Position numbers and translations under genes: made by a program. A stretch of DNA of 36,569 bases from the UHGV virus genome UHGV-1487493; one strand, given 5' to 3'. This document shows positions 612 through 36,314 of the stretch, in pieces; position 1 is the first letter of the stretch, and each line of letters starts with the position of its first letter. The DNA is from a virus. The notes beneath the pieces were generated by a model. It ran no database searches. It saw only the letters and a list, made by a program, of their open reading frames with translations, and was not told the DNA's origin.

Positions 612-3600
612 CTATTTCTTGTTAACCAAATTAACTTTATTTTGATTTCTTGCTTCTTTTTGTTTAACAATTGTGTATATTTTATCTCCAACAAGTTCGG
701 TATGAACTTCAAATACTGGTTCTTGTAATTGACTAGTTTTAACTTCTTCGCTTAATTCATTCATAGATGAAGAAAGCTTATTAGAGACATTTCTAGTATC
801 CGCCGTTAAAACAGAATTTGCTTCATATTCTTGTGATTTTATTGATGTTGCATATGCTAACGCTTGTCTATCAACTTGCTTTTGCATTCTTGACATGCCG
901 TTAACTAAACCCATCCCAACAAATCCCCCAATTTTATCGGTAACACGTGATGGCGAATGAATATCCAGTGCTTTCCTCATAGTACGGGCTACGTTACTAG
1001 CTATATTACTAGCAGTTGCGTAAATAGAACCCGCAGAATTTGCTAAACCATTTCTCAAACCTATACCTGCATTATAACCGATATTAGAAAGCGTTGAAGT
1101 CAATCCACTAAAAATGGAGTTTATTCGACTCGTGGAAGAAATCATTATGCTTGTCATTGAATTCATGCTATTCATAACGGCACTATTCATTCTATTCATA
1201 CCATTTTGAACATTATTTGCCATTGAATTGAATGCTTGAGTATTTGCAGAATTTATCCTACTGAATCCCCCGTTAATAGTACTAACAACACTATTCATTG
1301 TACCTGTCACATTTGACTTCATTGAGTTCATGGACTTCGTTACATTGTTTGACATCTGTGAAATGTCTTGCGAAGATTTATTATTAATATTTTGTGTATT
1401 ATTTGATACATTTTGAAACATTTGGTTAGAGGCACTAGAAGCTTGTTGGGTAGCTTGATTCATATTAGTGCCAACAGCATTCGCAGTACCAGAGGTAGCC
1501 TGATTAACATTAGATAAAATACTATTATAGTCACTAGAGACACCATTTAGTGCACTATTAGACTCTTTTGTTGCAGCATTTGCTGCTTTAGTTGAATTTG
1601 AACTTACTACACTATTAAGGTTATTCATCGTTCCTGATACATTTGTAGCTAGTAGATTATAGTTTGAAGACGTACCATCTTTAGCTGCATTAGAAGCATT
1701 AATTGCATTGTTTGAGGCCTGTGTACTCAAATTACCTACATTTAGATTCATGTTGTTCATTGAATTAGCAACATTTGAACTTGCTTGTCCATAAGATGAA
1801 CTCAAATTTGTAGCAGTAGTTGTAGCATCATTTGATACTTTTGAGCTTGTTTCAGATGACTTACCCGTTATTGTGTTCCATAAATTTGAAAACCCATTTT
1901 TAATACCATCCCAAGCTCCTTTTAAAACATTAGGAATAGCCTCTAAAATAGCACCAGCAAGAGCTTTAATAATATCCCATCCAGCAGCAATAATTTGTGG
2001 TAGCATCTGGATTACCGTGCCAATCAACGTCATAATGATTTGTATCCCTGAAGAGACAATGTTAGGTAAATTTTCTACAATACCATTAACCAAGGCCATA
2101 ATAATTTGCATTGCAGCATCTAGAATCATAGGTAAGTTTTCTACAATAAAATTACATAATGAATTTATTATTTGGACTGCTCCATCTAAAAGCTTAGGTA
2201 TATTATCCATTAAACCTTGGATTAATGTTAGAATCGCGTTTAATGCGACAGGTAAAATTTGTGGCAGTAATTGAGTAAGACCATCAATTAAATTCTGAAG
2301 AATCTGAATACCCGTATCTATAATCTGAGGTAGATTTTCCATTACAGAATTAACAAACGAATCCAAGATTTTTTTTACTGATTCAACTATTTTGGGTATA
2401 TTTTGAATGATTCCTTTAACTATATTCAGCAAAAGTTCCATTCCCATTTTTAATAATTCAGGCAATGCACTTGCTATGGAGCTCAAAAATGAAGTAATAA
2501 CTTCTAAAGCTGAATTTATAAGAGAAGGTGCATTTTGTCCTACACCTTGTACAAGACTTCCAATAATCTTCATACCTGCATCTATGATTACTGGAATCAT
2601 TGTAGATATAGCACTAGCTAGTTTAGCAATTAATTCAGTGCCACTTTGCATAAGTTGTGGCAATTGTGAGGTAATACCATTAACAAGATTAGTTATAATT
2701 TCTGGTCCTTTTGTAGTTACTGTGTTTAATAATTGGTCAATTTGTGCTCCAAATTGATTATTTATTAATCCCAATCCAGCTATAACTAACCCTAATATAG
2801 CTGCAGGTCCTATAGCTGATAAAGCCACTTGCATGATAGTTCCCATTGCAGAAGTCATGCCACCTAAGGCTCCCATCCCAACAGAACTTGCCATGGATAA
2901 GCTACTTCCTATTTTAGGAATTAAACCTATTAAACCTGTTAATCCAGAACTAAACATTTTGAACGGTCCGCTTATCATACCTCCTAATATTCCTGAAAAT
3001 GCTGAAAATCCGCTTGAAAGAGATGCAATTGCAGGAACTGCTTTACTGACTACTAGCGCGCTTCCCAATACAGCAGCTATAGGTAATAGTCCTTGAATAG
3101 CACCTTTTAAAGCATCAATACTTTTTTTAGACAAATCAGTACCATTTATAAAATGGTTTAAAACATTTGTAGCAATATCTACCGCTGCAGATATTTTATC
3201 CATATTAAAGTCACCAATTTTATCTGTTAATTTGCTGACTGCTTCTATCCCTACTTGAGACAGTTGATCAAAAGCCGGTTGTAATTTATTGGTGATTGTT
3301 TCCTTTAAGCCATCCATTGCTTGCCCGACAGTTTTATATTCGGTAGCCATTTTTGAAAACGTTTCGTTTGTACCAGTTTTAGTTATTGCATCAAAGAAAT
3401 CTTGAGTAGCAATTTTCCCATCTTGAACCGCAGTCACCATTTCAGAGGTTGACATACCCATAGTTTTAGCAACAGCTGCAATACCCGCAGGAGTTTGTTC
3501 TAACATCAATTTAAAATCTTGCCATTGAACCATCGGTTTTGCAGCCATTTGTGTAGCTTGTTGACTTAGCGTCGTCATCGCTTGTGTCGGATTTTCAGCT

Positions 3601-4526
3601 GCCGCAGCTAATCCACCAAACCCCATAACCAATTTGTCAGTATTTTTTATTCCTACAGCTGCTAATTGACTATATGTAGTAGCCATTTCAGAAGCAGAAT
3701 AAATTGTTTTAGTGGCAAAATCCTGTAGCTCTTTTTTTACAGATGCTATTTCATCTTTTCCTTTACCAATATTTTCCATATTAGCATTGAAAGTTTTCCA
3801 TGTAGCTGAGCCTTGGTTCAAGTCACCTATAATTTCTTTAAATCCGCTAGAAAGTGCTGATATGCCTTTTTGAGCTACCGCGTATGCTGCACCAATACCT
3901 ATGATTTTTTTTACTAAATCATCTGTTGCTGATCCTGCTTTATTGGTTCCTGAAACCATCTTATTTAGTGCGTTAGACGCTTTTGATCCAGCACTATTAA
4001 ACGCTCCAGTTAATTTCGAACCTATATTAGTTCCCAAAGTAGTAATTTTTGAACTTATTTCACTAGCACTTGATCCAACAGATTTAAATGCACTTTTAAA
4101 AGGCTGTGGTATTTTAGAAGCAACTGTCGAAAATGCTTTACCAATTATTGATGTTTGTTGTGATAGTCCAGCTCCCATTTCTTTAGCTGAACTTACAACC
4201 GCATTCTTGGCAGTAGACATCCCTTTTTTAATTGGTTGTGGAATTTTTTCGCCGATTCCAGCAATTACACGTTGAATACCGCCGCCAGCTTTTTCAAATA
4301 ATGCAACAGTTTGCGGTAAAACTTTAGAAACGCTATTTAGCATCGGATCAGCTAACTTACTCATAATTTGACCGACTTTTTGAGTAGTACTCATAGATCC
4401 ATTTTGTAATATGTTAGCAACATCATTCATAGTTTTATTTGCTATAGATGAAACTTTATTCATTGCAGCATTATATTGCGACAAATCAGCACCGATAACA
4501 GCGTTAATAGCACCTTCAAAAGCCAT
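612..4526 (-). CDS. Tail tape measure protein (1304 aa)
   Basis: Size and position between the G/T chaperones and Dit; GGAGGTG RBS; internal ~22-aa tandem repeats (..ENLPxIxxxGxQII..); ~380-aa Ser/Asn/Thr-rich low-complexity segment; helical N-terminus. Confidence 0.9.
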   Translation of the reverse strand: MAFEGAINAVIGADLSQYNAAMNKVSSIANKTMNDVANILQNGSMSTTQKVGQIMSKLADPMLNSVSKVLPQTVALFEKAGGGIQRVIAGIGEKIPQPIKKGMSTAKNAVVSSAKEMGAGLSQQTSIIGKAFSTVASKIPQPFKSAFKSVGSSASEISSKITTLGTNIGSKLTGAFNSAGSKASNALNKMVSGTNKAGSATDDLVKKIIGIGAAYAVAQKGISALSSGFKEIIGDLNQGSATWKTFNANMENIGKGKDEIASVKKELQDFATKTIYSASEMATTYSQLAAVGIKNTDKLVMGFGGLAAAAENPTQAMTTLSQQATQMAAKPMVQWQDFKLMLEQTPAGIAAVAKTMGMSTSEMVTAVQDGKIATQDFFDAITKTGTNETFSKMATEYKTVGQAMDGLKETITNKLQPAFDQLSQVGIEAVSKLTDKIGDFNMDKISAAVDIATNVLNHFINGTDLSKKSIDALKGAIQGLLPIAAVLGSALVVSKAVPAIASLSSGFSAFSGILGGMISGPFKMFSSGLTGLIGLIPKIGSSLSMASSVGMGALGGMTSAMGTIMQVALSAIGPAAILGLVIAGLGLINNQFGAQIDQLLNTVTTKGPEIITNLVNGITSQLPQLMQSGTELIAKLASAISTMIPVIIDAGMKIIGSLVQGVGQNAPSLINSALEVITSFLSSIASALPELLKMGMELLLNIVKGIIQNIPKIVESVKKILDSFVNSVMENLPQIIDTGIQILQNLIDGLTQLLPQILPVALNAILTLIQGLMDNIPKLLDGAVQIINSLCNFIVENLPMILDAAMQIIMALVNGIVENLPNIVSSGIQIIMTLIGTVIQMLPQIIAAGWDIIKALAGAILEAIPNVLKGAWDGIKNGFSNLWNTITGKSSETSSKVSNDATTTATNLSSSYGQASSNVANSMNNMNLNVGNLSTQASNNAINASNAAKDGTSSNYNLLATNVSGTMNNLNSVVSSNSTKAANAATKESNSALNGVSSDYNSILSNVNQATSGTANAVGTNMNQATQQASSASNQMFQNVSNNTQNINNKSSQDISQMSNNVTKSMNSMKSNVTGTMNSVVSTINGGFSRINSANTQAFNSMANNVQNGMNRMNSAVMNSMNSMTSIMISSTSRINSIFSGLTSTLSNIGYNAGIGLRNGLANSAGSIYATASNIASNVARTMRKALDIHSPSRVTDKIGGFVGMGLVNGMSRMQKQVDRQALAYATSIKSQEYEANSVLTADTRNVSNKLSSSMNELSEEVKTSQLQEPVFEVHTELVGDKIYTIVKQKEARNQNKVNLVNKK

Positions 4527-4530
4527 TTAC

Positions 4531-4845
4531 TCACCTCCACTTTTTATTTTTGAAATAGTTCATCACTTCTTTTGCCTTTTCCACACGATTGTATGTTTCT
4601 TCCTTTTCGTTTGTCGTAGCAAAAATAGATTTTATTTTGCGTTCAATTTTTTCTTTATCAAATACCTTTTTTATTTTTGGCTTTTTTGCATTCAAAACAT
4701 ATCTTAAAGTAAACGCATAGTGAGCTTTTTGTTCTTGTTCATCTACGCTTTTCAAAGCTAATCCTTCTAAAATCGCTTCTAACTCCCACTTATAACAAGA
4801 CATAATTAATGGAATATCCACTAATCCTTGCCTAGCACAATTCAC
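4531..4845 (-). CDS. Tail assembly chaperone, gpT-like distal part (-1 frame relative to the upstream chaperone)
   Basis: Lies between gpG-like ORF and TMP; begins with GTG overlapping the TAG of the upstream ORF (TAGTG) in the -1 frame; that frame stays open >=13 codons upstream. Confidence 0.5.
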   Translation of the reverse strand: MNCARQGLVDIPLIMSCYKWELEAILEGLALKSVDEQEQKAHYAFTLRYVLNAKKPKIKKVFDKEKIERKIKSIFATTNEKEETYNRVEKAKEVMNYFKNKKWR

Positions 4846-5321
4846 TATGAGATTTCTTTCTTGATTCGATCTGCTAAATCTTTGACCGCTTTTGCTTGTT
4901 GCTCTGGATTTTGAATCTCTTCGGTCGGTTGTTGGCTCTTCAAGTAATCTGCTGCTTTCTCTAGATTGTTGATATATTTCTTCAATTTCTTCACGAAAAA
5001 ACCAGAATCCAACATTTCTTGTTTAAGTGTTTCAAATACCATGCTGTATCCTTCTTCTTCATCTTCAAAAGTTTCCACAAAATCCTGAACAGACTTCGCA
5101 ATGTCTTCATCTGTTACTTTGTCTTTTGAAGCCAGCTTGATAATATCAAAAAGCGCATCATCATCTTCTTCTAGAACTTTTACAAAAAGAACACCTGCAC
5201 CATCATTTTGTGAATTACCTTGAGCATCTTTTGTACCTAGCTTTTTATTAGCTTTAAATAACATTCCATAATTAAACTTAATTTCTAATTGTTTCCCTTT
5301 TAATTCAACTGCAAATGACAT
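4845..5321 (-). CDS. Tail assembly chaperone, gpG-like (acidic, 158 aa)
   Basis: Acidic small protein immediately upstream of the T-like ORF and TMP, the conserved siphovirus arrangement. Confidence 0.6.
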   Translation of the reverse strand: MSFAVELKGKQLEIKFNYGMLFKANKKLGTKDAQGNSQNDGAGVLFVKVLEEDDDALFDIIKLASKDKVTDEDIAKSVQDFVETFEDEEEGYSMVFETLKQEMLDSGFFVKKLKKYINNLEKAADYLKSQQPTEEIQNPEQQAKAVKDLADRIKKEIS

Positions 5322-6208
5322 ATATTATTTCCTCCTGTTTTAGCCATTTTTATAGCGTCTATATATTTTATAGTTGCTTTATCTTTAGCCATATTATCTA
5401 ATCTATCTTCAAAGGGACTAGTATTAACATATTTTCCTTTAAAAAATAAATCTTTATCTTTTTCAGTTACACCTGCATTGTGTAATATTTTTGTTTCGTA
5501 CCATTTATTGACTGGATCAGTTGGCCAGCAAAAATTTAATTCTTCATGAATTTTAGGACCTATGTTATAAAACATCATATTCCAAAGTTGTGCCCACATC
5601 TCAGCTGTCCATTTTTGAATATTACTTTGTTGAGCATCAAGGTAACGATAAAGACGATTTGAATCATGATAAACTTTTTCCCAATATTCTTTCTTAGGAC
5701 GTGTAATAACCCACTGAGCTCCTCCAGAGTTATTATTAATTGTTTCTAACGAATCTACAGTCACACCTACAATATTTGCCATATCAGCTAAGATTTTTTC
5801 TCCATTTTTACATTGACGAATATAATCTAAATTCAAATAACCGTTGCAATCAGAACAATACCATACGTCATTTTTTGACGGCATTTTTCTAAAATTAATT
5901 TTCTTTCTGAAAATAACATCTGAATCAATATACATATATCGTTCATTTTCTCGTTTAGGATTCTCTTCTAAATATTTCCACCATAGATAAGGTTTGATTG
6001 AAGGGATATATTCTTTGTCATCCCTAGAATCTTCATAAACATGAACTTCAACGCCATATTTCTCTTCAAAAAAACTAGGAATCGTGTCATCATGCTTGCT
6101 AAAAATAAGCACAATATCTTTAATTCCTAGTTTTTTCAAATTTGTCAAACAAACCTCTAATTCCCATTTAAAACGAGTGATTGCAGGTTGACAAAGAATA
6201 TATTTCAT
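5300..6208 (-). CDS. Putative GT-A-fold glycosyltransferase with DxD motif, embedded in the tail operon
   Basis: 302 aa; motif YMYIDSDVIF about 100 aa from the N-terminus resembles the hhYhDxDhh sugar-nucleotide-binding DxD of GT-A enzymes (Gly_transf_sug-like); start overlaps the major tail protein stop (TAATG); 22 bp overlap with the downstream chaperone. Confidence 0.45.
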   Translation of the reverse strand: MKYILCQPAITRFKWELEVCLTNLKKLGIKDIVLIFSKHDDTIPSFFEEKYGVEVHVYEDSRDDKEYIPSIKPYLWWKYLEENPKRENERYMYIDSDVIFRKKINFRKMPSKNDVWYCSDCNGYLNLDYIRQCKNGEKILADMANIVGVTVDSLETINNNSGGAQWVITRPKKEYWEKVYHDSNRLYRYLDAQQSNIQKWTAEMWAQLWNMMFYNIGPKIHEELNFCWPTDPVNKWYETKILHNAGVTEKDKDLFFKGKYVNTSPFEDRLDNMAKDKATIKYIDAIKMAKTGGNNICHLQLN

Positions 6209-6864
6209 TACTTAGAAGGCGCCTGCGTTGTTGTTGTCGTCGTGGTGGAAGATGTTGTTGTAGTAGTTGTGGAAGTAGTAGTTGTTGTTCCATTATCAAT
6301 ATTGCTATAATCACCAGTAGTTTCTCCTGGGCGTTGGAATTGATACAAACTTTCGACCATTGCAACGTCTTCATCTGACAAAGGAAATGTTCCGTCTTGC
6401 AATTTCCCTACAATATTTAATGTGTAGCTAATTTCAACTAAATCTTCTCCTTCAGCATATTCTAATTCGTCAGGGATACCATAACCAAATTTAGCTGGAT
6501 AAGCTTTAGTTCCGGCTCCTTCTTCCGTTGCAAGAGTATCGTCAACAACAACTCGCCATACTTTAACAGAATGTCCATTCTTTTTGGCTTCTTCAATAAC
6601 ATCAATTGATTCATCATCGGGAGCAAAGTATTGTGTCAATTCAATACTATGTTCATCAGTTGACTTTAAAATGATACGACCCATTTTTGTTTGTTCATCG
6701 ATGTTGTCACCACCAATAGTTGTAGTACCATCTGTTTGAAATGCAGGCAAGAGAGCTGGAGATCCAATTGGTACTTGTGTGCTTTGAATAAAGTACCAAA
6801 CACGATTTCCTCTAATAGGTGTTCCTTGAAATTTTTTAATTCCGTTATTTACTGTTTCTGGCAT
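6208..6864 (-). CDS. Major tail protein with C-terminal poly-threonine tail
   Basis: 218 aa located between head-tail joining genes and the tail chaperones; C-terminus ...NGTTTTTSTTTTTTSSTTTTTTTQAPSK encoded by ACN codon repeats at 6211-6290. Confidence 0.75.
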   Translation of the reverse strand: MPETVNNGIKKFQGTPIRGNRVWYFIQSTQVPIGSPALLPAFQTDGTTTIGGDNIDEQTKMGRIILKSTDEHSIELTQYFAPDDESIDVIEEAKKNGHSVKVWRVVVDDTLATEEGAGTKAYPAKFGYGIPDELEYAEGEDLVEISYTLNIVGKLQDGTFPLSDEDVAMVESLYQFQRPGETTGDYSNIDNGTTTTTSTTTTTTSSTTTTTTTQAPSK

Positions 6865-7247: not shown

Positions 7248-7581
7248 CTATCTTTTGTAAATTCTTCATTAATGTTGGATATTCTTCTTTAACAGCAGGA
7301 TACAAGAAAGGTTGAGCAGCCATGAAGCGTGTTCCTTCTTCGATGAAAATTGAATAGTTAGCAGGCGAGTCTATACTTACACACATTCTGTTCATCATAT
7401 ATGAATATATATTGCTTCTTAACCATCCAGTATCTACCGGTGCTAATTGTTTAGCCCTTTTCTCAACTCTAAATCCTGATTTTTGTAGCTCTTTATGAAT
7501 GGACTGTTCTGTTTTTTCTGTTTGCTTCTTAACACCACGAACAAATGCCTTCAGTCCAACAATTTGAATAACTTTGCTCAT
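7234..7581 (-). CDS. HK97 gp10-family head-tail joining protein
   Basis: 115 aa with the VDTGxLRxSI signature typical of the HK97 gp10 family; position in the head-tail joining block. Confidence 0.55.
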   Translation of the reverse strand: MSKVIQIVGLKAFVRGVKKQTEKTEQSIHKELQKSGFRVEKRAKQLAPVDTGWLRSNIYSYMMNRMCVSIDSPANYSIFIEEGTRFMAAQPFLYPAVKEEYPTLMKNLQKIVGGK

Positions 7582-7859
7582 GTTAATATCACAACTGTTG
7601 AATTGCGATGGAACTTAACATCAAAAATATTTTTAGAAATACCGTCTATATTAATTTCATCAAAGAAGAAATATCCCTGTAAATGAACTTTAAGTGCATT
7701 CTTATTGTATTTTCCAAAGAAAGCTATTTGTTCATCAAAAGAAATATTATGGATACTGCAAGGTACTGTTTTAACTTCTTTTGAAATGACTTCTTCTCCT
7801 AAATAACCTTCATCAGTAGTAATATTCTTGACTATTTTACAACGATGGTTATAAATCAT
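7578..7859 (-). CDS. Head closure / head-tail adaptor protein (SPP1 gp16-like)
   Basis: 93-aa ORF in conserved position between the connector and the gp10-like gene; overlapping stop/start. Confidence 0.45.
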   Translation of the reverse strand: MIYNHRCKIVKNITTDEGYLGEEVISKEVKTVPCSIHNISFDEQIAFFGKYNKNALKVHLQGYFFFDEINIDGISKNIFDVKFHRNSTVVILT

Positions 7860-8239
7860 GGTAAAAACCTCGCAATTCCTTTACCAGCTCTGATTTCAGG
7901 CTTAGTATATTCGTCTAAAATATTCAAATATTCATCCAAATAACTCTTTTCCCAAGTAAAAGAACGACCTTCTTCGCTGTCAGAACTTGCCCCTTCACTA
8001 TTTCTTTTGTTGAAACGTTTAATTGAGACATCTCTCAATATATAGTTCAAGCTATCAGGTACAGCATCGTATTTGTCTGTTCCATTTTTTTGAGCATATT
8101 GATTCAAGACAGATAAAATGCGTTCTTCACTGTCTTGAATCACTAACGTTAGCAATTCATCTTGGAGCTCGTCAGAAATGCCTAACAAAACTTTGATTTC
8201 CTTCAGACTATTACCATATTCATTTTCTATATTTTCCAT
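7856..8239 (-). CDS. Head-tail connector (gp6 / SPP1 gp15-like DNA packaging protein)
   Basis: 127-aa acidic ORF directly downstream of the capsid gene in conserved order. Confidence 0.45.
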   Translation of the reverse strand: MENIENEYGNSLKEIKVLLGISDELQDELLTLVIQDSEERILSVLNQYAQKNGTDKYDAVPDSLNYILRDVSIKRFNKRNSEGASSDSEEGRSFTWEKSYLDEYLNILDEYTKPEIRAGKGIARFLP

Positions 8240-8253
8240 ATTAGAAACCTACT

Positions 8254-9231
8254 TTACCCTTGTGTCGTAGTAGTCGTTGTTGTTGGCTGTGTCGTTGTGG
8301 TCGTCGTTTCACCACTAATTGTTGCTTCTACTACACCTTCTGGAATTTCAGGGAATAATGTTAAAGCATTCATAAACAATGATTCAAATGTTGCATTTCG
8401 TAGGGTACGTCCACGAGTCGCTGAAATAAAACCAGTTTCATCAACAAAGTCCACAAAAATATCACCTAAATCAGATGCCTTCATATCCAAGTATGCTAAT
8501 ACGATATTGTCAACGGCGGTAGAATAAACCTTTCCTTCTGGGATTGCGTTTAATACAATAACGTTTGTTGCACCTAGAAAGTTTTTCAATAAGGTCATAC
8601 CAAATACATTAGATGCATCTGCTAAGACTTTTGTATCCCCTAAGTAGGTTGCTACATCCATAGGATTTACAAAGGAAACAAATTGAGCGCCATCAAACTC
8701 TTCGAATGTGCTTAGTTTCCCCCATGATTGTGCTAACGCTTTTTGTAACCCTTCAGCTTGAATTTTAGTAGGGGCTGTACCTAAGTAGTTAACAAATTGT
8801 GATTTAATTCCACCTTGAATTTGGCGCAATAATTTTTCGTCAGATTGATCAATCGCAATAGATGCTCCATGACGAGCAATTGCTTCAGCAGTTACTGCAC
8901 GGCGCCATTTATTAAATGTTACTGTAAATGATTTTCCTTTAGCTCGAGTTACTTTGGATAAAGGAATATCATCACCTTCCGCAACATTTCCATCTTTTAA
9001 TGACGTTGTCCATTTGTACATTTGAATTTTCATATCTTTGGATAAAGGTTCTAACCGTGTTACACCTAACAACTCTAATAATTCTTTGATGCCTTTCTCA
9101 AAACGATTCACAAAATCAATGGATTTAATTTCTCCTAAATCGTCCATTTTTGTAAGGTCTGGTTCTGCCGCAAATAGTTGCAAATCCATTTTTAATAAAC
9201 GTTCTTTATTAGTTTTTGACATATTTTTCAT
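8254..9231 (-). CDS. Major capsid protein (HK97-fold type) with N-terminal L27-like cleavage motif and C-terminal poly-threonine tail
   Basis: 325 aa following the scaffold gene; AGGAGG RBS; N-terminal ...KMDLQLFAAEPD; C-terminus ...GETTTTTTQPTTTTTTTQG. Confidence 0.8.
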   Translation of the reverse strand: MKNMSKTNKERLLKMDLQLFAAEPDLTKMDDLGEIKSIDFVNRFEKGIKELLELLGVTRLEPLSKDMKIQMYKWTTSLKDGNVAEGDDIPLSKVTRAKGKSFTVTFNKWRRAVTAEAIARHGASIAIDQSDEKLLRQIQGGIKSQFVNYLGTAPTKIQAEGLQKALAQSWGKLSTFEEFDGAQFVSFVNPMDVATYLGDTKVLADASNVFGMTLLKNFLGATNVIVLNAIPEGKVYSTAVDNIVLAYLDMKASDLGDIFVDFVDETGFISATRGRTLRNATFESLFMNALTLFPEIPEGVVEATISGETTTTTTQPTTTTTTTQG

Positions 9232-9981: not shown

Positions 9982-10329
9982 TTAAAACGACTCAACTTCT
10001 AATTCTTTGTAAATGTTTAATAATTTAGGAAACTGAATAGCAATCCAATCAACGATTTCTTCATTTCTTGGCCATTCTGCGTTATTGTCTAATCCCGATT
10101 CAAATAAAATAGCATGGATAATTTCATGGCGTATGGTTCTAGCTTCATATACATCAATTTCTTGAAAATTATCTGGATCTCCGTTATCTAACTGATTAAT
10201 AAAAATTTCTTTGGTCGTAAAATCAGTGACACCGTCTGCGCCGCGCATAAAAGGCTTGTCTGCTTCTGTTGTCTCTTTATAAATTGTGTATTCTACGCCT
10301 AACACATTAACTTTTGCTTTTTCTTTCAT
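9982..10329 (-). CDS. Small HExxH-motif protein (putative Zn-metallopeptidase-like), head module
   Basis: 115 aa, motif IRHEIIHAILFESG; AAAGGAA RBS. Confidence 0.45.
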   Translation of the reverse strand: MKEKAKVNVLGVEYTIYKETTEADKPFMRGADGVTDFTTKEIFINQLDNGDPDNFQEIDVYEARTIRHEIIHAILFESGLDNNAEWPRNEEIVDWIAIQFPKLLNIYKELEVESF

Positions 10330-10504
10330 TACTATTTTCCTTTCTCAAATGCTCTTCATAATCAGCATCCAAATAGTCATATGGATCTGGTGGTACTTCT
10401 TTTTGCTCGTAATGAATTCCTGTCTTAATCAGCATAATCGTTATTGCTAGTGAAAACCCTAAGAAAGGCATGCCAATAATTAAAGCAATAAATCTTAACA
10501 ACAT
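10307..10504 (-). CDS. Small single-pass membrane protein (65 aa)
   Basis: N-terminal hydrophobic helix FIALIIGMPFLGFSLAITIMLI, acidic C-terminus; GAGGGA RBS. Confidence 0.35.
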   Translation of the reverse strand: MLLRFIALIIGMPFLGFSLAITIMLIKTGIHYEQKEVPPDPYDYLDADYEEHLRKENSNERKSKS

Positions 10505-10505
10505 T

Positions 10506-11408
10506 TTAAATATCCCTCAATTCTTTTTTACTTGGAACGATCGTACTTCGACAATTCACGTGCATCGGTGGTGCATTTAGACCAGGTTGAAAATCTGCTA
10601 ATTTAAAGACGTCACCGTTTAGACCTTTGCATATCTCGGTAGTGCGATTGTCAATATGAGCAAGGTATTCATATTCAGTGAAACCAGCATCTATATAGCG
10701 TTTTGCCGTAGCATTATTGATAATATTCGTTCCATCTGTACGAATGATTGCTTCAGCTCTTGAACGCGCTACATTGTATTTTTTTCTTAACTCCCTTGCC
10801 ATTTCAGCAGGGCCCAATCCTCTTACAAATCCTTTAACTAAAGTATTCCTCAAGTCATTAGCTAAATCATCTACATTTCCCCAAATACTTTGCGAATAGT
10901 TTTTTCCATTGAATGGTGTATTCACTAATTGTTCTAAGGTAGGTAGATTTAAAGTACTCGCAGAATTTCCACCAGATATTTTTCTATATGCGTACTTCGC
11001 GACTTCTTTCAAATAGTCATTAAATGATTGTTCAAGATCACCGCGCATCACACCTAATTGATAAAGCAAGTCTAGCTGTAACGCCTCTAATCGAGTGACT
11101 TTTCCAGCTCTATATTGTTCATTTAAGCGTTTCAATAATTCCGGGTCTTTTTTAGCCGCTTTGAAATATTTCTTGGCATTCTCTCTATAATCACTTAAGT
11201 CCTCCCTCATGAGCCGTTTTTTTGCTTCTTGCATAGAGATTCTATTTTCTTTAGCATACTGAGTATAAAATTTATATATCTCTTTCTGGATGTTCTGGCG
11301 ATTTTCTGTGTATATAGATTGTAATTCATCGAAGAAATCTAAATCCGTTTTATCAACGTAAGCCATGATTTCATCCATACGCTTTATCCAATATTGCTGT
11401 GAAGTCAT
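10506..11408 (-). CDS. Head morphogenesis protein, phage Mu gpF / SPP1 gp7 family
   Basis: 300 aa; C-terminal hallmark ...NAPPMHVNCRSTIVP; directly downstream of portal. Confidence 0.8.
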   Translation of the reverse strand: MTSQQYWIKRMDEIMAYVDKTDLDFFDELQSIYTENRQNIQKEIYKFYTQYAKENRISMQEAKKRLMREDLSDYRENAKKYFKAAKKDPELLKRLNEQYRAGKVTRLEALQLDLLYQLGVMRGDLEQSFNDYLKEVAKYAYRKISGGNSASTLNLPTLEQLVNTPFNGKNYSQSIWGNVDDLANDLRNTLVKGFVRGLGPAEMARELRKKYNVARSRAEAIIRTDGTNIINNATAKRYIDAGFTEYEYLAHIDNRTTEICKGLNGDVFKLADFQPGLNAPPMHVNCRSTIVPSKKELRDI

Positions 11409-18746: not shown

Positions 18747-19511
18747 TCATATAAATAGCCCCATTGGGATATTTGACAACATTTTTTCCTGCGCAACTTC
18801 GTACATCTCTTTCTTTATTTCAAATCCATAAGCATTTCTATTGAGTTCTGCCGCAGCTCTAAGCGTAGAGCCACTACCAGCGCATGGATCTATTACAACA
18901 TCCCCATAATCTGTGAAAATTTCAATTAACCGTTTAATAACGGGTACCGGTTTTTGTGTCGGATGTATTTTTGGGTAGCTGTTATCCGTTTCCCATTCAA
19001 ACCAATTTAGAACCATACGGCCGTCGTTATTGAATTTGGGAAGTTTTTCTCTGTAAAGAACTAGTGCATATTCTGTAGCCCCTACGATCCTCATATTTGC
19101 TTTTAGTACTTGAGGACTGGACTTCTTAATAAAAACTAGTGGAATGTGATTTTTAAAGCCGTACCGTTTACCATAATCAATCACCATTTGAAGCTGTTGA
19201 AAAGCGCAAAATACAATCATAGCTGGCGCTTTTCCAACTTCTTTAGGTTCTTTCTTTAACATTTTTGAGCAAAAATGCATAAACTCTGATATTCTAAAAT
19301 TCTCATCGGTGTCAAAAAAGCTTTTATTCGCTTTATCCGATTCTCCATTTTCAATTTTTCCACCCTCATACCATGCAGAACTGGATGCATAAGCATTTTT
19401 ACCTAAGTTGTACGGTATGTCTGCAATAACTAATTGTGCTTTCGGTATGCCGTATCGTTTATAATTTTGAAAATGATCGTTAAATAATTGTATTTTCGGT
19501 TCTCTCTGCAT
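18747..19511 (-). CDS. DNA methyltransferase, N6A/N4C beta-class (orphan; no cognate endonuclease seen)
   Basis: Motif IV DIPY (ADIPYNLG) near the N-terminus and motif I VIDPCAGSGST near the C-terminus. Confidence 0.8.
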   Translation of the reverse strand: MQREPKIQLFNDHFQNYKRYGIPKAQLVIADIPYNLGKNAYASSSAWYEGGKIENGESDKANKSFFDTDENFRISEFMHFCSKMLKKEPKEVGKAPAMIVFCAFQQLQMVIDYGKRYGFKNHIPLVFIKKSSPQVLKANMRIVGATEYALVLYREKLPKFNNDGRMVLNWFEWETDNSYPKIHPTQKPVPVIKRLIEIFTDYGDVVIDPCAGSGSTLRAAAELNRNAYGFEIKKEMYEVAQEKMLSNIPMGLFI

Positions 19512-19566
19512 AATTTCAAAGGAGTAAAGAATTCTTTGTGGTCGACCAAACCTCCACTCCTTTCGC

Positions 19567-19707
19567 TTATTTCTTCTTTATTTCAGCTAACTTTTTCGCA
19601 ACACTTTGCCCACTTTTGTTGCATAGCGGACAAGAAGTTGCTTTTGAATGGCCGAATCTATCTTTTTCCCAGACAATCATCTGTCCCTTGCATTTTGGAC
19701 ATGTCAT
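19567..19707 (-). CDS. Small zinc-ribbon protein (46 aa; CPKC...CPLC)
   Basis: GAGGGAAAAG RBS; two CxxC pairs; not in the ORF track. Confidence 0.3.
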   Translation of the reverse strand: MTCPKCKGQMIVWEKDRFGHSKATSCPLCNKSGQSVAKKLAEIKKK

Positions 19708-28710: not shown

Positions 28711-29874
28711 ATGGCAATGATTAGGCAATATCAAAAGAAAAGCGGCGAAAAAGCATGGTACTTCAAAACATATCTTGGGATTGATCCACTAACTAAAAAA
28801 AAGAAATACACTACCAAGAGAGGATTTAAAACACAAAAAGAAGCAAAAATTGCATTGGCAAGATTAGAGATGGAGATTGAACGTAACGGAATAAAGCAAT
28901 CTTCTTCTATAACATTTCAAGAGATAGCAGTAATGTGGCTTGAAAACTACAAAAATACAGTTAAAGATAGTAGCTATTCTCGTACTAACATAATTTTCAA
29001 TAAACATATTTTTCCTCACTTCGGAAAAATTGAAATAGCAAAAATAAATACAGCTTATTGTCAAAAAGTAGTTAATAACTGGCACACTAACGGGACATCA
29101 AAACAATATCCTTTATTTTTAAATTATATGAATAAAGTTTTTAAGTTTGCTATAAATATGGGAGTTACCGCCGAAAACCCAACAACAAATGTAATCATCC
29201 CAAAGAATAAGGAAACTGCAAATCCTAAAGATACGAAAATAAAATTTTACAACAAAGACCAATTAAAAAAATTTTTAGAGTGTATACATCAACAGCCGCA
29301 AGAAAATAATTATATAACTATCAGAGATTATACACTATTTAGATTATTGTCTTTCAGTGGATGTAGAATAGGAGAATTACTAGCACTAACCTGGGATGAT
29401 TTAAACTTAGAAACAGGAGAATTGCAAATAAATAAAACCGTTACTAAATCGGATACGTATTATGTATCCTCCACCCCAAAAACAAAAAAATCAAATAGAA
29501 TAATCATATTAGATAGAATCACTTTAGAGTGTCTTAAGAAATGGAGATCAGAACAGAAGAAGTTTCTTTTTAAGTTGGGTTTCACTCAACCTTCAAGAAT
29601 TTTTACTAATGACTCTAATGAGTTCACTATTAATCAATCCGTTACAGAAAGGTATAAGATATATCAAAAAAAAGCAAATTTACCTAATATAGGCTTACAT
29701 GGATTTAGACATACGCACGCCTCACTGTTATACAATGCTGGCGCTGATCATAAAGAAGTACAAGAACGTCTCGGGCACGCTAATATAAAGACTACGTTAG
29801 ACACCTACACACATTTAACAGATGATAGAAAAGAAGTGACTACTGAAAAATTAGCTAACTACATCGGTTTTTGA
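28711..29874 (+). CDS. int: Tyrosine integrase
   Basis: 387 aa; C-terminal catalytic ..HGFRHTHASLL..HANIKTTLDTYTHL.. (R..HxxR..Y). Confidence 0.9.
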   Translation: MAMIRQYQKKSGEKAWYFKTYLGIDPLTKKKKYTTKRGFKTQKEAKIALARLEMEIERNGIKQSSSITFQEIAVMWLENYKNTVKDSSYSRTNIIFNKHIFPHFGKIEIAKINTAYCQKVVNNWHTNGTSKQYPLFLNYMNKVFKFAINMGVTAENPTTNVIIPKNKETANPKDTKIKFYNKDQLKKFLECIHQQPQENNYITIRDYTLFRLLSFSGCRIGELLALTWDDLNLETGELQINKTVTKSDTYYVSSTPKTKKSNRIIILDRITLECLKKWRSEQKKFLFKLGFTQPSRIFTNDSNEFTINQSVTERYKIYQKKANLPNIGLHGFRHTHASLLYNAGADHKEVQERLGHANIKTTLDTYTHLTDDRKEVTTEKLANYIGF

Positions 29875-30917: not shown

Positions 30918-32219
30918 TCAATAGTTCAATGTTTGCCCTGGATAAATTAAGTTAGGATTTGCTAATCCGTTCCGTTGCGCTAGAGCTTGGTATGTCGTGC
31001 CGAGCTTAGCGGCAACGCTTGATAAATTATCACCCAACTGGACTGTGTAAACGTTATTTACTGCTGATCCATTGACTTTCAAAACTTGACCTGAATAAAT
31101 AAGATTTGGATTAGTCAATCCATTTAAAGCTGCCAACGTTTGATAGTCTGTTCCATATTGATACGCAATACTTGATAATGTTTCACCATATTGAACTACG
31201 TGAGTAGATTCTGGTTGCTTATCAGGAACAACTGTTGCATCTGGCAATAATTCAATATCGCCTTTGCTAATCCATGACAAAATGCCTTCTAGCAATACTC
31301 TACTTCCAGTTACTTCTTGCACTTTGTAGCTGTTTCCTTTTACCCAATCTGGAATAGCTTCGCCAGTTGCCCAAGCATCAACATTAAATTTCACTTTAAC
31401 CGTATCGCCAGCTTTTACTGCAGAATTAGGCGTATCTTCAGTTTCTTTACCTGCATCTGTCGCTGGTGTATCCGTTTCCGGCTTATCAGTAGCCGTATAA
31501 CCATTATCCGTAATTCCTGTTAAGTCTACGTTACCATCTAAACCGCCTGCAATATAAGTTGAGGTAAATTGCCAAATGCCAATACCATCCATGCTTGGGA
31601 AATAAGCATACAATGGATATGGTGACACACCATCGATAGGATACGCAGCAATCCATAAAGAGTTAGGAAACTCTTTGATGATTTGTTGATAATTTACATG
31701 ATTTAGTGTAAATGGCTTATAGCTGTAATACATTGGAGTATAGCCAGCCTGTTTGATTCTGCGCATACCGTACAAAATTGTTTCTGTATTTGCTGCTTTT
31801 TCGGCATCTGAACTTACATATCCTCCATATCCATCTGGAACACTAGCCAACGCTCCATGTTCAAAATCTAATGCAACGATGGAATTTTTAGGCGTTTGAA
31901 TACGTGTCAAAAAATAATCCATTGTCGTTTTCGCAATATCCATGCTACCGAACGTATCATACCAGATATAAGTGTGCGCTCGTTTTCCTTGAGCAATTGC
32001 ACTTGCTACTTGCGTTTTGTATGTGTATTGTTCATAAATACCACTAGCATTGTAGCCGCCAATTTGAGCGATAGCGAATTTATCATGTGCATAACCAAAG
32101 CGACCTTGGTCACCTTGATAAATCGCCCAATCCACACCTTGGTCACCTTTTGCAGCAAATACATTCAAAGGCATAAAAAATAGAGCGACAAGCGCTCCTA
32201 CTAAGATTTTCTTTTTCAT
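30918..32219 (-). CDS. Endolysin: Sec signal peptide + GH25 muramidase + SH3-like domain + 2 LysM
   Basis: N-terminus MKKKILVGALVALFFMPLNVFA-AKG; GH25-like catalytic region; two C-terminal LysM repeats (..YTVQLGDNLSSVAAKLGTTYQALAQRNGL..). Confidence 0.85.
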   Translation of the reverse strand: MKKKILVGALVALFFMPLNVFAAKGDQGVDWAIYQGDQGRFGYAHDKFAIAQIGGYNASGIYEQYTYKTQVASAIAQGKRAHTYIWYDTFGSMDIAKTTMDYFLTRIQTPKNSIVALDFEHGALASVPDGYGGYVSSDAEKAANTETILYGMRRIKQAGYTPMYYSYKPFTLNHVNYQQIIKEFPNSLWIAAYPIDGVSPYPLYAYFPSMDGIGIWQFTSTYIAGGLDGNVDLTGITDNGYTATDKPETDTPATDAGKETEDTPNSAVKAGDTVKVKFNVDAWATGEAIPDWVKGNSYKVQEVTGSRVLLEGILSWISKGDIELLPDATVVPDKQPESTHVVQYGETLSSIAYQYGTDYQTLAALNGLTNPNLIYSGQVLKVNGSAVNNVYTVQLGDNLSSVAAKLGTTYQALAQRNGLANPNLIYPGQTLNY

Positions 32220-32223
32220 TCGT

Positions 32224-32427
32224 TTACTCCTTCTCTTTTAGGTTATACGCTGACACACCTGTTACTACTCCCAAAAACGCAGATACAGCATTAATAGTTA
32301 ATACTGCTTTATCTGCGCCGACCCACCCATATAGGTCGCCAAGAGCAGAAACTAAAACAGAACTAGCTGGAAGTACAGTAAGTACTCCCCATTTGATGAT
32401 TTTATAATACTTGTCCGGTAGTATCAT
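32224..32427 (-). CDS. Holin (two TM segments)
   Basis: AGGAGG RBS before the ATG at 32427; hydrophobic segments; immediately upstream of the endolysin. Confidence 0.55.
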   Translation of the reverse strand: MILPDKYYKIIKWGVLTVLPASSVLVSALGDLYGWVGADKAVLTINAVSAFLGVVTGVSAYNLKEKE

Positions 32428-32711: not shown

Positions 32712-34184
32712 TTACAAAGTAAGTGAACCATCACTCTTAGCAGTTAGTTTAACTACAGTACCAAGTCCAACTTTTCCTATTTTTGGATATGGATCATCCG
32801 TCGTCCATGTACAAGTTGCATATTGATTCCCTGTTTGTCCTGACATCAAGGTCACTCGATTTGGGTAAAGCCCGTTGCCTGGTTCAAGATGCATTTTCAC
32901 TATTTTTTGGCCACTAGGTGGGGCAGTTGAGTTAACGGTAAATGGGATATTCCAGATTGCCCCTATATCTTCACCACCAGTGTTATAAGTAGCCCTGAAT
33001 CCTTCTGGAATTTGTAACAAGACATTATTTTTCGGTTCAACATCAACTTTTGTCACATTCACACGCATATGACATGTAACAACATTTCCAATCCTTATAC
33101 ACGTTACTTCAAGTTGACTTACCACATTTGTATCTGGAGAACCTGATTGTTTATATACAAATTTGTCAAACTGTCCATTATCAACAATCATTTTGTTCCA
33201 AGTTGTCCAAGTAGCAGGACTACCTTGTCTACTCCTAATATACGTTTCGCCTTTATAAATATAAGTTTGATTGATGAATGTATTATCTGCATATACAACT
33301 AAAGCACCATAAACTGCACCCGAATAAGGCCGGTTTGCGCCAGAAGCACCGAAGACGGTGTAAATTCCTTTGTCTAAAATTTCATCCCAGTCCTGCGCCT
33401 TAATCACAGTTTTTTTAGCAACTAATGATCCGTTCTCCATCTCTGTTTTACTTACATAACGAGAATCTGATTCTGTTCGTGTATAAAAGTCTGCTGCTCG
33501 CAATTCTTCTAATGCTGCATTCATAGCATCAGTAACTGTTTTTCCAATTGCTGTAATATTTGTCTCTACAGTTTTTCCTGCCTGATTAATCTTGTTTTCA
33601 CTATCTGTAGCCACCTTTGAAATACGGCCTTCTGCATCACTTACTGTTTTATCAATTTGCGTTTGTAATGTATTCATCTCTGTTTTTATTGTTTCAATTC
33701 GCTTAACAACTGCATCATAATCAGTATCTATTTTTTCTAATGCAGATTGATAAGCTTCATTTAAAGCTTTAACTAATTTGTTGTATTCAGTAATTATAGT
33801 TTTTGCTTCTTCTGCATCAATGTCAGCATTCCCGTACACCGTAATCTCAAAATCATCAGTAGATTCTCTCTTATCATCCTTCATGAAAGAAAAATACGCT
33901 AGTTCATATGAACCAGCCACAGCAAATGCCATATTTGGAAAAGTATAGGTAAATTCACCATTTTTTCCATTTGTTACCTCTATTCCATCTGAATCAAAAA
34001 CTTTTGTTCTTTCTTCATGGGTTACCCCTTCAAAAGTAGCTACCCAGCCAGTCAAATCGAAGGGAGCTCCATCTTTAAATATTTGAACCCTCATTGAAAG
34101 ACTCTCGCCGTCTCCAACTCGACCAAAAACAATTGGTCTTCCGATAGAATTTTTTGAAAGATCAAATCTTAATAAGTCACTCAT
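32712..34184 (-). CDS. Receptor-binding / baseplate upper protein (BppU-like N-terminus, coiled coil, C-terminal head domain)
   Basis: N-terminus MSDLLRFDLSKN..IVFGRVGDGESL.. BppU-like; central coiled-coil; AGGAGG RBS. Confidence 0.65.
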   Translation of the reverse strand: MSDLLRFDLSKNSIGRPIVFGRVGDGESLSMRVQIFKDGAPFDLTGWVATFEGVTHEERTKVFDSDGIEVTNGKNGEFTYTFPNMAFAVAGSYELAYFSFMKDDKRESTDDFEITVYGNADIDAEEAKTIITEYNKLVKALNEAYQSALEKIDTDYDAVVKRIETIKTEMNTLQTQIDKTVSDAEGRISKVATDSENKINQAGKTVETNITAIGKTVTDAMNAALEELRAADFYTRTESDSRYVSKTEMENGSLVAKKTVIKAQDWDEILDKGIYTVFGASGANRPYSGAVYGALVVYADNTFINQTYIYKGETYIRSRQGSPATWTTWNKMIVDNGQFDKFVYKQSGSPDTNVVSQLEVTCIRIGNVVTCHMRVNVTKVDVEPKNNVLLQIPEGFRATYNTGGEDIGAIWNIPFTVNSTAPPSGQKIVKMHLEPGNGLYPNRVTLMSGQTGNQYATCTWTTDDPYPKIGKVGLGTVVKLTAKSDGSLTL

Positions 34185-36301: not shown

Positions 36302-36314
36302 CACTACTTACTCC

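Follow-up and report, generated by a model that had tools for sequence, protein, structure and literature searches.

A poly-threonine tag and a predicted O-glycosyltransferase as a candidate virion-decoration module of tailed phages

Introduction

The DNA analysed in this study, a 36,569-nt viral sequence (UHGV-1487493; referred to below, over its whole length 1-36569, as the window), is a complete, circularly permuted phage genome, whose structural region is approximately 98% identical to that of the Enterococcus faecalis temperate phages phiFL1A-C and phiFL2A/B. On its minus strand, between the gene of the major tail (tube) protein (MTP) and those of the tail assembly chaperones G/T, lies an open reading frame (ORF) of 302 codons (5300-6208), which belongs to a family earlier described as being of "unknown function" (PHROG 4417). 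A first-pass annotation, made from the sequence alone, noted in this ORF a motif typical of glycosyltransferases (GTs), and observed that both the MTP and the major capsid protein (MCP) end in poly-threonine tails. The question raised by this locus is what the 302-residue protein does within a tail-morphogenesis operon, and whether the threonine tails of the neighbouring structural proteins are its substrates.

We consider it probable that this enzyme glycosylates threonine tracts of virion proteins, and that the tracts and the enzyme form a module composed of a portable tag and a dedicated O-glycosyltransferase. The evidence comprises the predicted fold of the protein, its conserved residues of catalytic type, the structure of the operon, and the co-variation and adjacency of the gene and the threonine tracts in other phages.

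To our knowledge, virion glycosylation by phage enzymes has been experimentally established only for mycobacteriophages, in which it changes recognition by antibodies. The O-glycans of phages Che8, Corndog and Myrna are reportedly carried by C-terminal extensions, and little evidence of virion glycosylation is said to have been obtained for the broader phage population. The mycobacteriophage precedent invoked in the first-pass annotation is backed by papers citing the original work (Freeman 2023, cited in PMC12363180 and PMC11256854), which state that phage-encoded GTs glycosylate capsid and tail-tube proteins.

Results

The 302-residue protein matches PHROG 4417 over its full length (residues 1-290 of 302, E 4.5e-155), and no match for it was obtained in Pfam (E <=1) or NCBIfam, with phmmer, or in a search of the PDB with the family profile. 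Its AlphaFold2 (AF2) model (pLDDT 93.5) is a single Rossmann-like alpha/beta/alpha domain, which matches solved GT-A structures; the GT-A fold suspected at first sight was therefore recovered by structure prediction and fold comparison. The DxD motif D95-S96-D97 (...RYMYIDSDVIF...; 5918-5926, minus strand), a predicted Mn2+/nucleotide-sugar site, is placed at the end of strand 90-93, as in GT-A enzymes, and is invariant in 26 diverse homologues sharing 52-81% identity with the query, which bears out its earlier recognition within YMYIDSDVIF. His243 (5480-5482, minus strand), located in an invariant H-N-A-G, is a candidate for the third metal ligand known from GT8 enzymes. Further invariant columns of the alignment of homologues are A245, G246 and K257-G258, and HNAG...FFKGKY stands in place of the canonical GT8 motif HxxGxxKPW.

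Similarity to known enzymes ends at the level of the fold. There is no detectable sequence homology with the GT8, GT24 and GT77 proteins compared (glycogenin, LgtC, GlyE, the UGGT catalytic domain and Skp1 AgtA). Alignment with the Escherichia coli GT8 enzymes WaaO and WaaJ by hhalign was not significant (probability 0.9% and 0.6%), the sole segment aligned being the DxD strand with the DAD of WaaO/WaaJ, and Pfam PF01501 (Glyco_transf_8) did not match, which leaves the protein outside GT8 by sequence. Since it resembles no characterised GT in sequence, the enzymatic assignment is one of predicted fold plus motifs: we file the protein as a putative GT-A glycosyltransferase, acting like GT8/GT24 enzymes, yet no sequence member of GT8. 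A quite different chemistry, that is, transfer of sugar-phosphate or another non-glycosidic group to the threonine tracts (by a Stealth/CpsY-like or GlcNAc-1-phosphotransferase-like activity), or a non-catalytic role as a tail-binding chaperone, seems to us very unlikely.

The closest folds, which include GlyE, AgtA and LgtC, bear on another alternative, in which a host enzyme primes the tails and the phage protein extends the glycan as a secondary GT, just as the GT8 enzyme GlyE acts on GlcNAc-Ser of serine-rich repeat adhesins. The three enzymes just named extend glycans, and one divergent locus carries a Gtf3-type GT, both of which fit this scheme. However, glycogenin, whose fold is equally close, glycosylates a protein side chain directly, and a common host priming enzyme is improbable, since most phages with the family carry a single GT and their hosts are very different. 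We consequently hold extension of a host-made glycan to be unlikely, and prefer the direct glycosylation of threonine by the phage enzyme.

An exhaustive search with a hidden Markov model (HMM) placed the family in 862 clusters at 50% identity. The first-pass annotation had supposed that such an arrangement was unreported for low-GC Gram-positive phages. We also found no description of it, full-text searches for Firmicutes phages having yielded no report of glycosylated virions or poly-threonine tails, but the arrangement is not rare: tblastn detected the GT gene in 77 deposited phage genomes, in every one of which it is annotated as hypothetical. Certain family members carry a fusion partner, which may be a second or third GT-like domain (Glyco_transf_7C), a methyltransferase, radical-SAM/SPASM or the peptide-recognition element PqqD; the last architecture is typical of enzymes acting on peptides.

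Two side observations concern family members of other contexts. A fusion to a PqqD-type recognition element of ribosomally synthesized and post-translationally modified peptides (RiPPs) is encoded on a bacterial chromosome (GCA_021654515.1; locus L298, 4878-8327) within a bacteriocin-like cluster. This cluster contains four tandem small precursor-like peptides, with the leader MVKxYKKPEFKTVxFExEDVITTS and Thr/Pro-rich cores, together with genes of a ScmC-like protein, a second PqqD protein, a GT52, a nucleotidyltransferase and an ABC exporter; its product may be a glycosylated RiPP. In addition, the members from Bacillaceae prophages (P0084, P0091, P0098, P0104, P0109 and P0122; alignment A1, columns 315-377) have an additional C-terminal segment of approximately 55 residues (...F.DL.D...Y..GD.FP...K.....R..EL.S..NK.GKPLI...), which looks like a helix-extension-helix motif.

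The threonine tails of the window are found on two proteins, both encoded on the minus strand (T followed by a number denotes consecutive threonines). The MTP, of the TP901-1/SPP1 family (6208-6864; phrog_238, E 7e-55; TIGR02126, E 2e-33), terminates in GTTTTTSTTTTTTSSTTTTTTTQAPSK (GT5ST6SST7QAPSK), its tail T5-S-T6-SS-T7-QAPSK being encoded by 6211-6288. The MCP (8254-9231; phrog_544, E 1.6e-69) terminates in ETTTTTTQPTTTTTTTQG (ET6QPT7QG), with the tail T6-QP-T7-QG at 8257-8307. Both tails are predicted O-glycosylation acceptors. A run of at least four threonines occurs in only these two real ORFs of the whole 36.5-kb window, in both cases at the extreme C-terminus, and the tracts are coded by a mixture of ACA, ACT, ACG and ACC; for these reasons the tails noticed earlier can be taken as real and specific, and chance as excluded. 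Two other origins of the tails in the window were rejected: a trinucleotide microsatellite, on account of the mixed codons, and copying by gene conversion, on account of the DNA of the MCP and MTP tails being 54% identical.

If the tails are substrates of the enzyme, the two should occur together, and the first-pass annotation had left this to a survey of other phages. Such a survey revealed that in 83 of 83 viral-contig loci with the GT gene (GT-positive loci), one or more proteins encoded on the same strand end in a threonine run. Other isolated phages conform to this pattern. Their tailed proteins are the MCP, a small Thr-rich protein and the MTP in iLp84, the MTP in bIL285, a head protein and the tube protein in phiCTP1, and a capsid/protease fusion and the MTP, both ending T9-10HHD, in phage 1706; both VPE25 and SA2 combine an MTP tail with an extension, which in VPE25 follows the MCP.

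Homologues of the window MTP were found in 78 phage records, 58 of them from Streptococcus, Bacillus or Pediococcus phages, and tblastn detected no GT gene in the phage records of these three genera. Javan47 and Javan505, two GT-negative Streptococcus phages, have a homologous MCP and MTP, both without a threonine tract; their MCPs share ...EIPEGVVEATI with that of the window. A comparable pair is offered by the genus Coetzeevirus: in the GT-positive R3.3 the MCP ends ...AIFTAGTSAT6KAPT5SSHA and the MTP ...GEFADGSVT6SHA, while in the GT-negative Bassarid and phiJL-1 they end, tail-less, in ...AIFTASPKA and ...GEFSDAVGSEDAPGSGAA, respectively. When the 80 loci retrieved via the MTP family were restricted to those with adequate flanks, 32 had both tail and gene, one the tail only, none the gene only and 21 neither (Fisher p = 4e-14, a value that overstates independence, because many of the counted loci are close relatives). 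At least two separate tail/gene transitions have taken place inside this single MTP family. Moreover, runs of at least six threonines number 82 in 677 kb of GT-positive loci, and in 633 kb of GT-negative related DNA they are confined to the mosaic prophage contig L239 (the exceptional locus of the above table) and two partial loci in which the usual position of the GT gene is not covered. On this comparative evidence, the gene and the tails appear to have been acquired and lost jointly in many lineages of unrelated phages.

The association was then approached from both sides. Among 120 random viral loci picked only for seven consecutive ACN codons, six contained a homologue of the enzyme at 26-40% identity, and in all six the gene with the threonine tract was immediately adjacent; an iterated HMM profile run on these 120 loci found nothing beyond the six tblastn homologues. 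In the forward direction, divergent representatives of the family were chosen blind to threonine content, and in five of six a gene with a T6-T16 tract was adjacent or next but one, the sixth being a 3.7-kb contig with no upstream sequence. Besides these six, the radical-SAM fusion P0174, selected on account of its domain architecture, has the gene of a T10 protein two genes upstream. As a side observation, the radical-SAM/SPASM fusion of locus L301 (656-4635) lies two genes downstream of a 358-residue protein (...TPPT10EAPT6...WCDCGSGCSEYIGFTCPPGCLECAPP), in which the threonine tract is followed by a Cys-rich tail, and an APS-kinase gene adjoins.

These data have to be set against the possibility that the protein is a real GT with another target, for instance the wall teichoic acid or Epa polysaccharide of the host (in superinfection exclusion or lysogenic conversion) or the phage DNA, the tails being merely unglycosylated hydrophilic spacers. 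It is well known that phage GTs can modify DNA or the surface polymers of the host, DNA-modifying viral GTs are represented in the literature, and some of the threonine tracts are on non-surface proteins. This alternative nevertheless leaves unexplained the near-perfect joint gain and loss, and the immediate adjacency retained at 26-40% identity. It also fits poorly with the position of the gene, which lacks its own promoter, inside late structural operons, its presence in the strictly lytic phages VPE25, 1706 and SA2, the fact that genes for making hydroxymethyl bases were not seen in the window, and the fusion of relatives to the PqqD peptide-recognition element. We therefore give a target other than the tails little chance, and proceed with the glycosylation of the threonine tracts.

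The tailed proteins span four unrelated MTP PHROGs (238, 88, 6686 and 2645) and four to five head PHROGs (544, 29, 10, 840 and 909), from which it follows that the tag has repeatedly been grafted onto unrelated structural proteins. The site of the GT gene varies too. The description of the gene as part of the tail operon is true for the window, but this is only one of several positions, and a location behind the MCP gene is commoner than one behind the MTP gene.

The sites at which the tails are attached indicate where they would be exposed. GT-negative MTPs can be aligned up to ...RPGETTGDY and lack a tail, and at the same junction of the MTP (after ...ERPGExxGEFxD) GT-negative relatives have either an Ig-like domain (Pfam Big_2) or no addition at all. 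Ig-like domains at the C-terminus of phage MCPs and MTPs decorate the outside of the particle, and the threonine tails, which occupy the same decoration slot, are for this reason expected on the virion surface.

In the window, the minus-strand structural genes are ordered as follows: portal, minor head protein, scaffold, MCP, connectors, MTP, the 302-codon ORF, chaperones G/T (4531-5321, composed of 4845-5321, with PF12363 at E 3e-11, and 4531-4845; phrog_183 and phrog_2567) and the tape measure protein (612-4526). In GT-negative relatives the chaperone genes come directly after the MTP gene, and the ORF is hence an insertion into the canonical gene order, at a place which, as the first-pass annotation stated, is normally empty. 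The MTP stop codon (6208-6210) and the GT start codon (ATG, 6206-6208) overlap in TAATG (6206-6210, minus strand), as had also been noticed, which constitutes a candidate termination-reinitiation site; inspection of the sequence revealed no obvious Shine-Dalgarno motif before this ATG. The 3' end of the GT gene overlaps the chaperone start (5319-5321) by 22 nt, and a strong GGAGG ribosome-binding site is present at that chaperone start. Promoter- and terminator-like sites around the GT gene were no more numerous than in shuffled controls, which leaves the idea of an independently expressed moron unsupported. The GT gene is co-transcribed with the MTP gene, and its translation is, from the arrangement of the two codons, probably coupled to that of the MTP.

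In two groups of phages the tails appear to be produced by recoding. Beside the stop of the MCP genes of Andrewesvirinae there is an A-AAR slip site (GCA AAG TAA; CCA AAA GCG TAG), followed in the -1 frame by a start-less ORF of 39-46 codons specifying poly-threonine repeats (VTPQP-T7-VKP-T5ST7-VKP-T8...), with the GT gene directly downstream (VPE25, L289 8460-8620; nattely, L294 ~3210-3380; Planchet, L293 ~3245-3390). This looks like programmed -1 frameshifting, which would place a threonine tail on a fraction of the capsid subunits, the predicted recoded MCP of VPE25 reading ...ATAK-VTPQPT7.... In Sextaecvirus, the MTP genes end ...T8-P at CCC TAA, and the +1 frame runs on for 63-86 residues of T6-8 repeats, ending in a conserved LDPSxPSDVP (SA2, L290 19700-19930; PT1-4, L295 2510-2710; RQ1, L296 3160-3431); in GenBank, this extension is a separate hypothetical ORF. 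The shifty stop resembles, by analogy, the +1 recoding site of Listeria phage PSA, and the recoded MTP predicted for SA2 reads ...T8P-KPT6....

A further observation relates to the very ends of the tails. The last two to three residues are usually common to the MCP tail and the MTP tail of a genome (QA/QA, SHA/SHA, HHD/HHD, KKV/KKV or SK/SK). In L062, L066 and L001 (iLp84), the last ~30 nt of both tails are identical or nearly so, including synonymous sites, and in iLp84 there is also 70% identity over the 30 nt beyond the stop; at these three loci the pattern is indicative of copying or gene conversion. In L013, L012 and L079 the peptide at the tail end is conserved and the synonymous sites have diverged, which indicates selection on the tail end. 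This retention of the peptide hints that the end itself matters, for example in recognition.

The window further encodes an integrase (28711-29874) and a DNA methylase (18747-19577), and the tail-tip and endolysin genes at the right end (30.9-36.3 kb; Tal, the tail tip protein, 34181-36307; BppU, 32712-34187; GH25-LysM endolysin, 30918-32237) continue the tail module begun at the left end.

Discussion

We propose that the phage protein acts in the cytoplasm as a metal-dependent GT-A glycosyltransferase and belongs structurally to the retaining, GT8/GT24-like class. It would be made late in infection and at a low level, through termination-reinitiation at the stop of the MTP gene, and would use a host nucleotide-sugar together with a divalent metal, for which D95/D97 and possibly H243 would serve as ligands. 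The sugar would be moved, probably with retention, given the structural class, to threonine hydroxyls of the MCP and MTP tails (approximately 13 sites per MCP and 18-21 per MTP). With termini that are expected to point outward, the assembled head and tail tube would carry glycosylated threonines as a dense, mucin-like brush. The glycan is probably simple, since the scanned ORFs of the window yielded neither a second GT nor a sugar-nucleotide gene; relatives with multi-GT fusions would build longer glycans. The poly-threonine tag and its enzyme may thus be viewed as a portable two-part module, occupying a slot that related phages fill with Big_2 or leave empty. The likely benefit would be shielding from antibodies or proteases, colloidal stability, or interactions with mucus and glycans.

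The nearest known parallel is the mycobacteriophage system, with which this module shares a phage-encoded GT, C-terminal Ser/Thr extensions of capsid and tail-tube subunits and, as predictions for the phages studied here, the glycosylation of these subunits and a glycan-coated virion. There are, however, clear differences: (i) the hosts of mycobacteriophages are Actinomycetota, and those of the phages studied here Bacillota, (ii) mycobacteriophages have several GTs and methyltransferases encoded elsewhere (near the 3' end in Maravista), whereas here a single GT gene lies in the structural operon next to that of its predicted substrate, and (iii) the predicted acceptor is here a homopolymeric threonine tract. 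The best 50 fold matches in BFVD contained no mycobacteriophage protein, and the enzyme family is probably different from that of the mycobacteriophage GTs (Che8 gp110/Corndog gp38).

The serine-rich repeat adhesins (GtfA/B, Gtf3, GlyE) provide a second parallel, with a dedicated cytoplasmic GT beside a low-complexity acceptor rich in hydroxy amino acids; the fold of GlyE is a close match, and one divergent locus contains a Gtf3-type GT as well. The adhesins have long SxSx repeats, are secreted and depend on accessory Sec, in contrast to the short threonine homopolymers on virion proteins, with no accessory Sec, described here. The divergent locus itself (L303, 11758-13273) is a GT-positive phage contig on which the additional Gtf3-type GT (PF26334/PF26337, of the serine-rich-repeat-protein pathway) is encoded beside a small T6-containing protein. 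The GTs of giant viruses (chlorovirus A64R and those of mimivirus) have eukaryotic hosts and other acceptor chemistry, and are more distant fold matches.

Ig-like (Big_2/FN3) decorations of MCPs and MTPs, some of them added via programmed frameshifting, are known from SPP1 (gp17.1*), Listeria phage PSA and L. casei phage A2. The threonine tails resemble them in their attachment to the C-terminus of homologous MTPs and MCPs and, in VPE25- and SA2-like phages, in the long tails apparently produced by -1/+1 recoding. The difference lies in the nature of the decoration, which is a folded domain in the one case and an unstructured threonine tract with a separate enzyme in the other.

Several observations weigh against glycosylation of the tails, in addition to the relatedness of the tabulated loci and the lack of sequence-level likeness to characterised GTs described above. 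In bIL285, the GT gene comes after a capsid gene without a tail. Some threonine tracts belong to proteins whose location is probably not the virion surface: they are found near the C-terminus of prohead protease/scaffold-type proteins of SA2 (L290 14874-15983) and VPE25 (L289 6116-7297), and in a putative holin of phage 1706 (L291 964-1368). On contig L239, the MCP gene (7429-8547) has Big_2 in place of both the poly-threonine tail and the GT gene, and the MTP (10001-10651) retains its tail (T6VAPT5SHA), with no GT gene in the 20 kb covered, which makes this locus the sole exception in the co-occurrence table; the tail is either an orphan tag that remained after an exchange of modules, or is served by a GT encoded beyond the 20 kb covered. 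In the deposited sequences of phiFL2A and phiFL1C, a run of five T nucleotides (window 5530-5534; ~1875 in L308, phiFL2A) contains one extra T (AAATTTTTGC becoming AAATTTTTTGC). This 1-nt insertion shifts the reading frame before His243, which accounts for the gene being unannotated in these two records, and reflects either a homopolymer sequencing error or natural inactivation. Finally, no published virion glycan data were found for any phage carrying the GT gene, the main text of a VPE25 proteomics study does not mention glycosylation, and a glycoprotein stain was negative for 10 other phages, none of which is known to carry the GT gene (PMC12894461).

Conclusions

The analysis performed in this study raises the possibility of a widespread system for the decoration of tailed phages, mostly those of Bacillota but reaching environmental low-GC phages, in which a portable poly-threonine tag and its O-glycosyltransferase produce mucin-like virions. 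The tag could be grafted to exposed structural proteins of any kind (capsid, tube, decoration protein or fibre linkers), would be placed in some lineages on only a fraction of the subunits via -1/+1 recoding, and would be interchangeable with Ig-like domains. We consider a system of such generality to be as likely as not.

If the proposed function is true, hundreds of "hypothetical" genes (PHROG 4417) gain a function, in Enterococcus VPE25-like phages and phiFL prophages, Staphylococcus Sextaecvirus, Lactococcus phage 1706, Lacticaseibacillus and Lactiplantibacillus phages and Clostridium phage phiCTP1, and among them are phages already present in laboratories and in therapeutic development. 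The C-terminal peptides of their capsid and tail proteins would then be "missing" from cryo-EM maps and virion proteomics. A short threonine tract and one enzyme of approximately 290 residues could also serve as a compact, genetically encoded glycosylation tag. Virion glycosylation would be common rather than a curiosity of actinophages, and gut, dairy and therapeutic phages would be changed by it in immunogenicity, in resistance to proteases and in their behaviour in mucus, with a bearing on immunogenicity and pharmacokinetics in phage therapy and on the persistence of phages in mucus and dairy settings.

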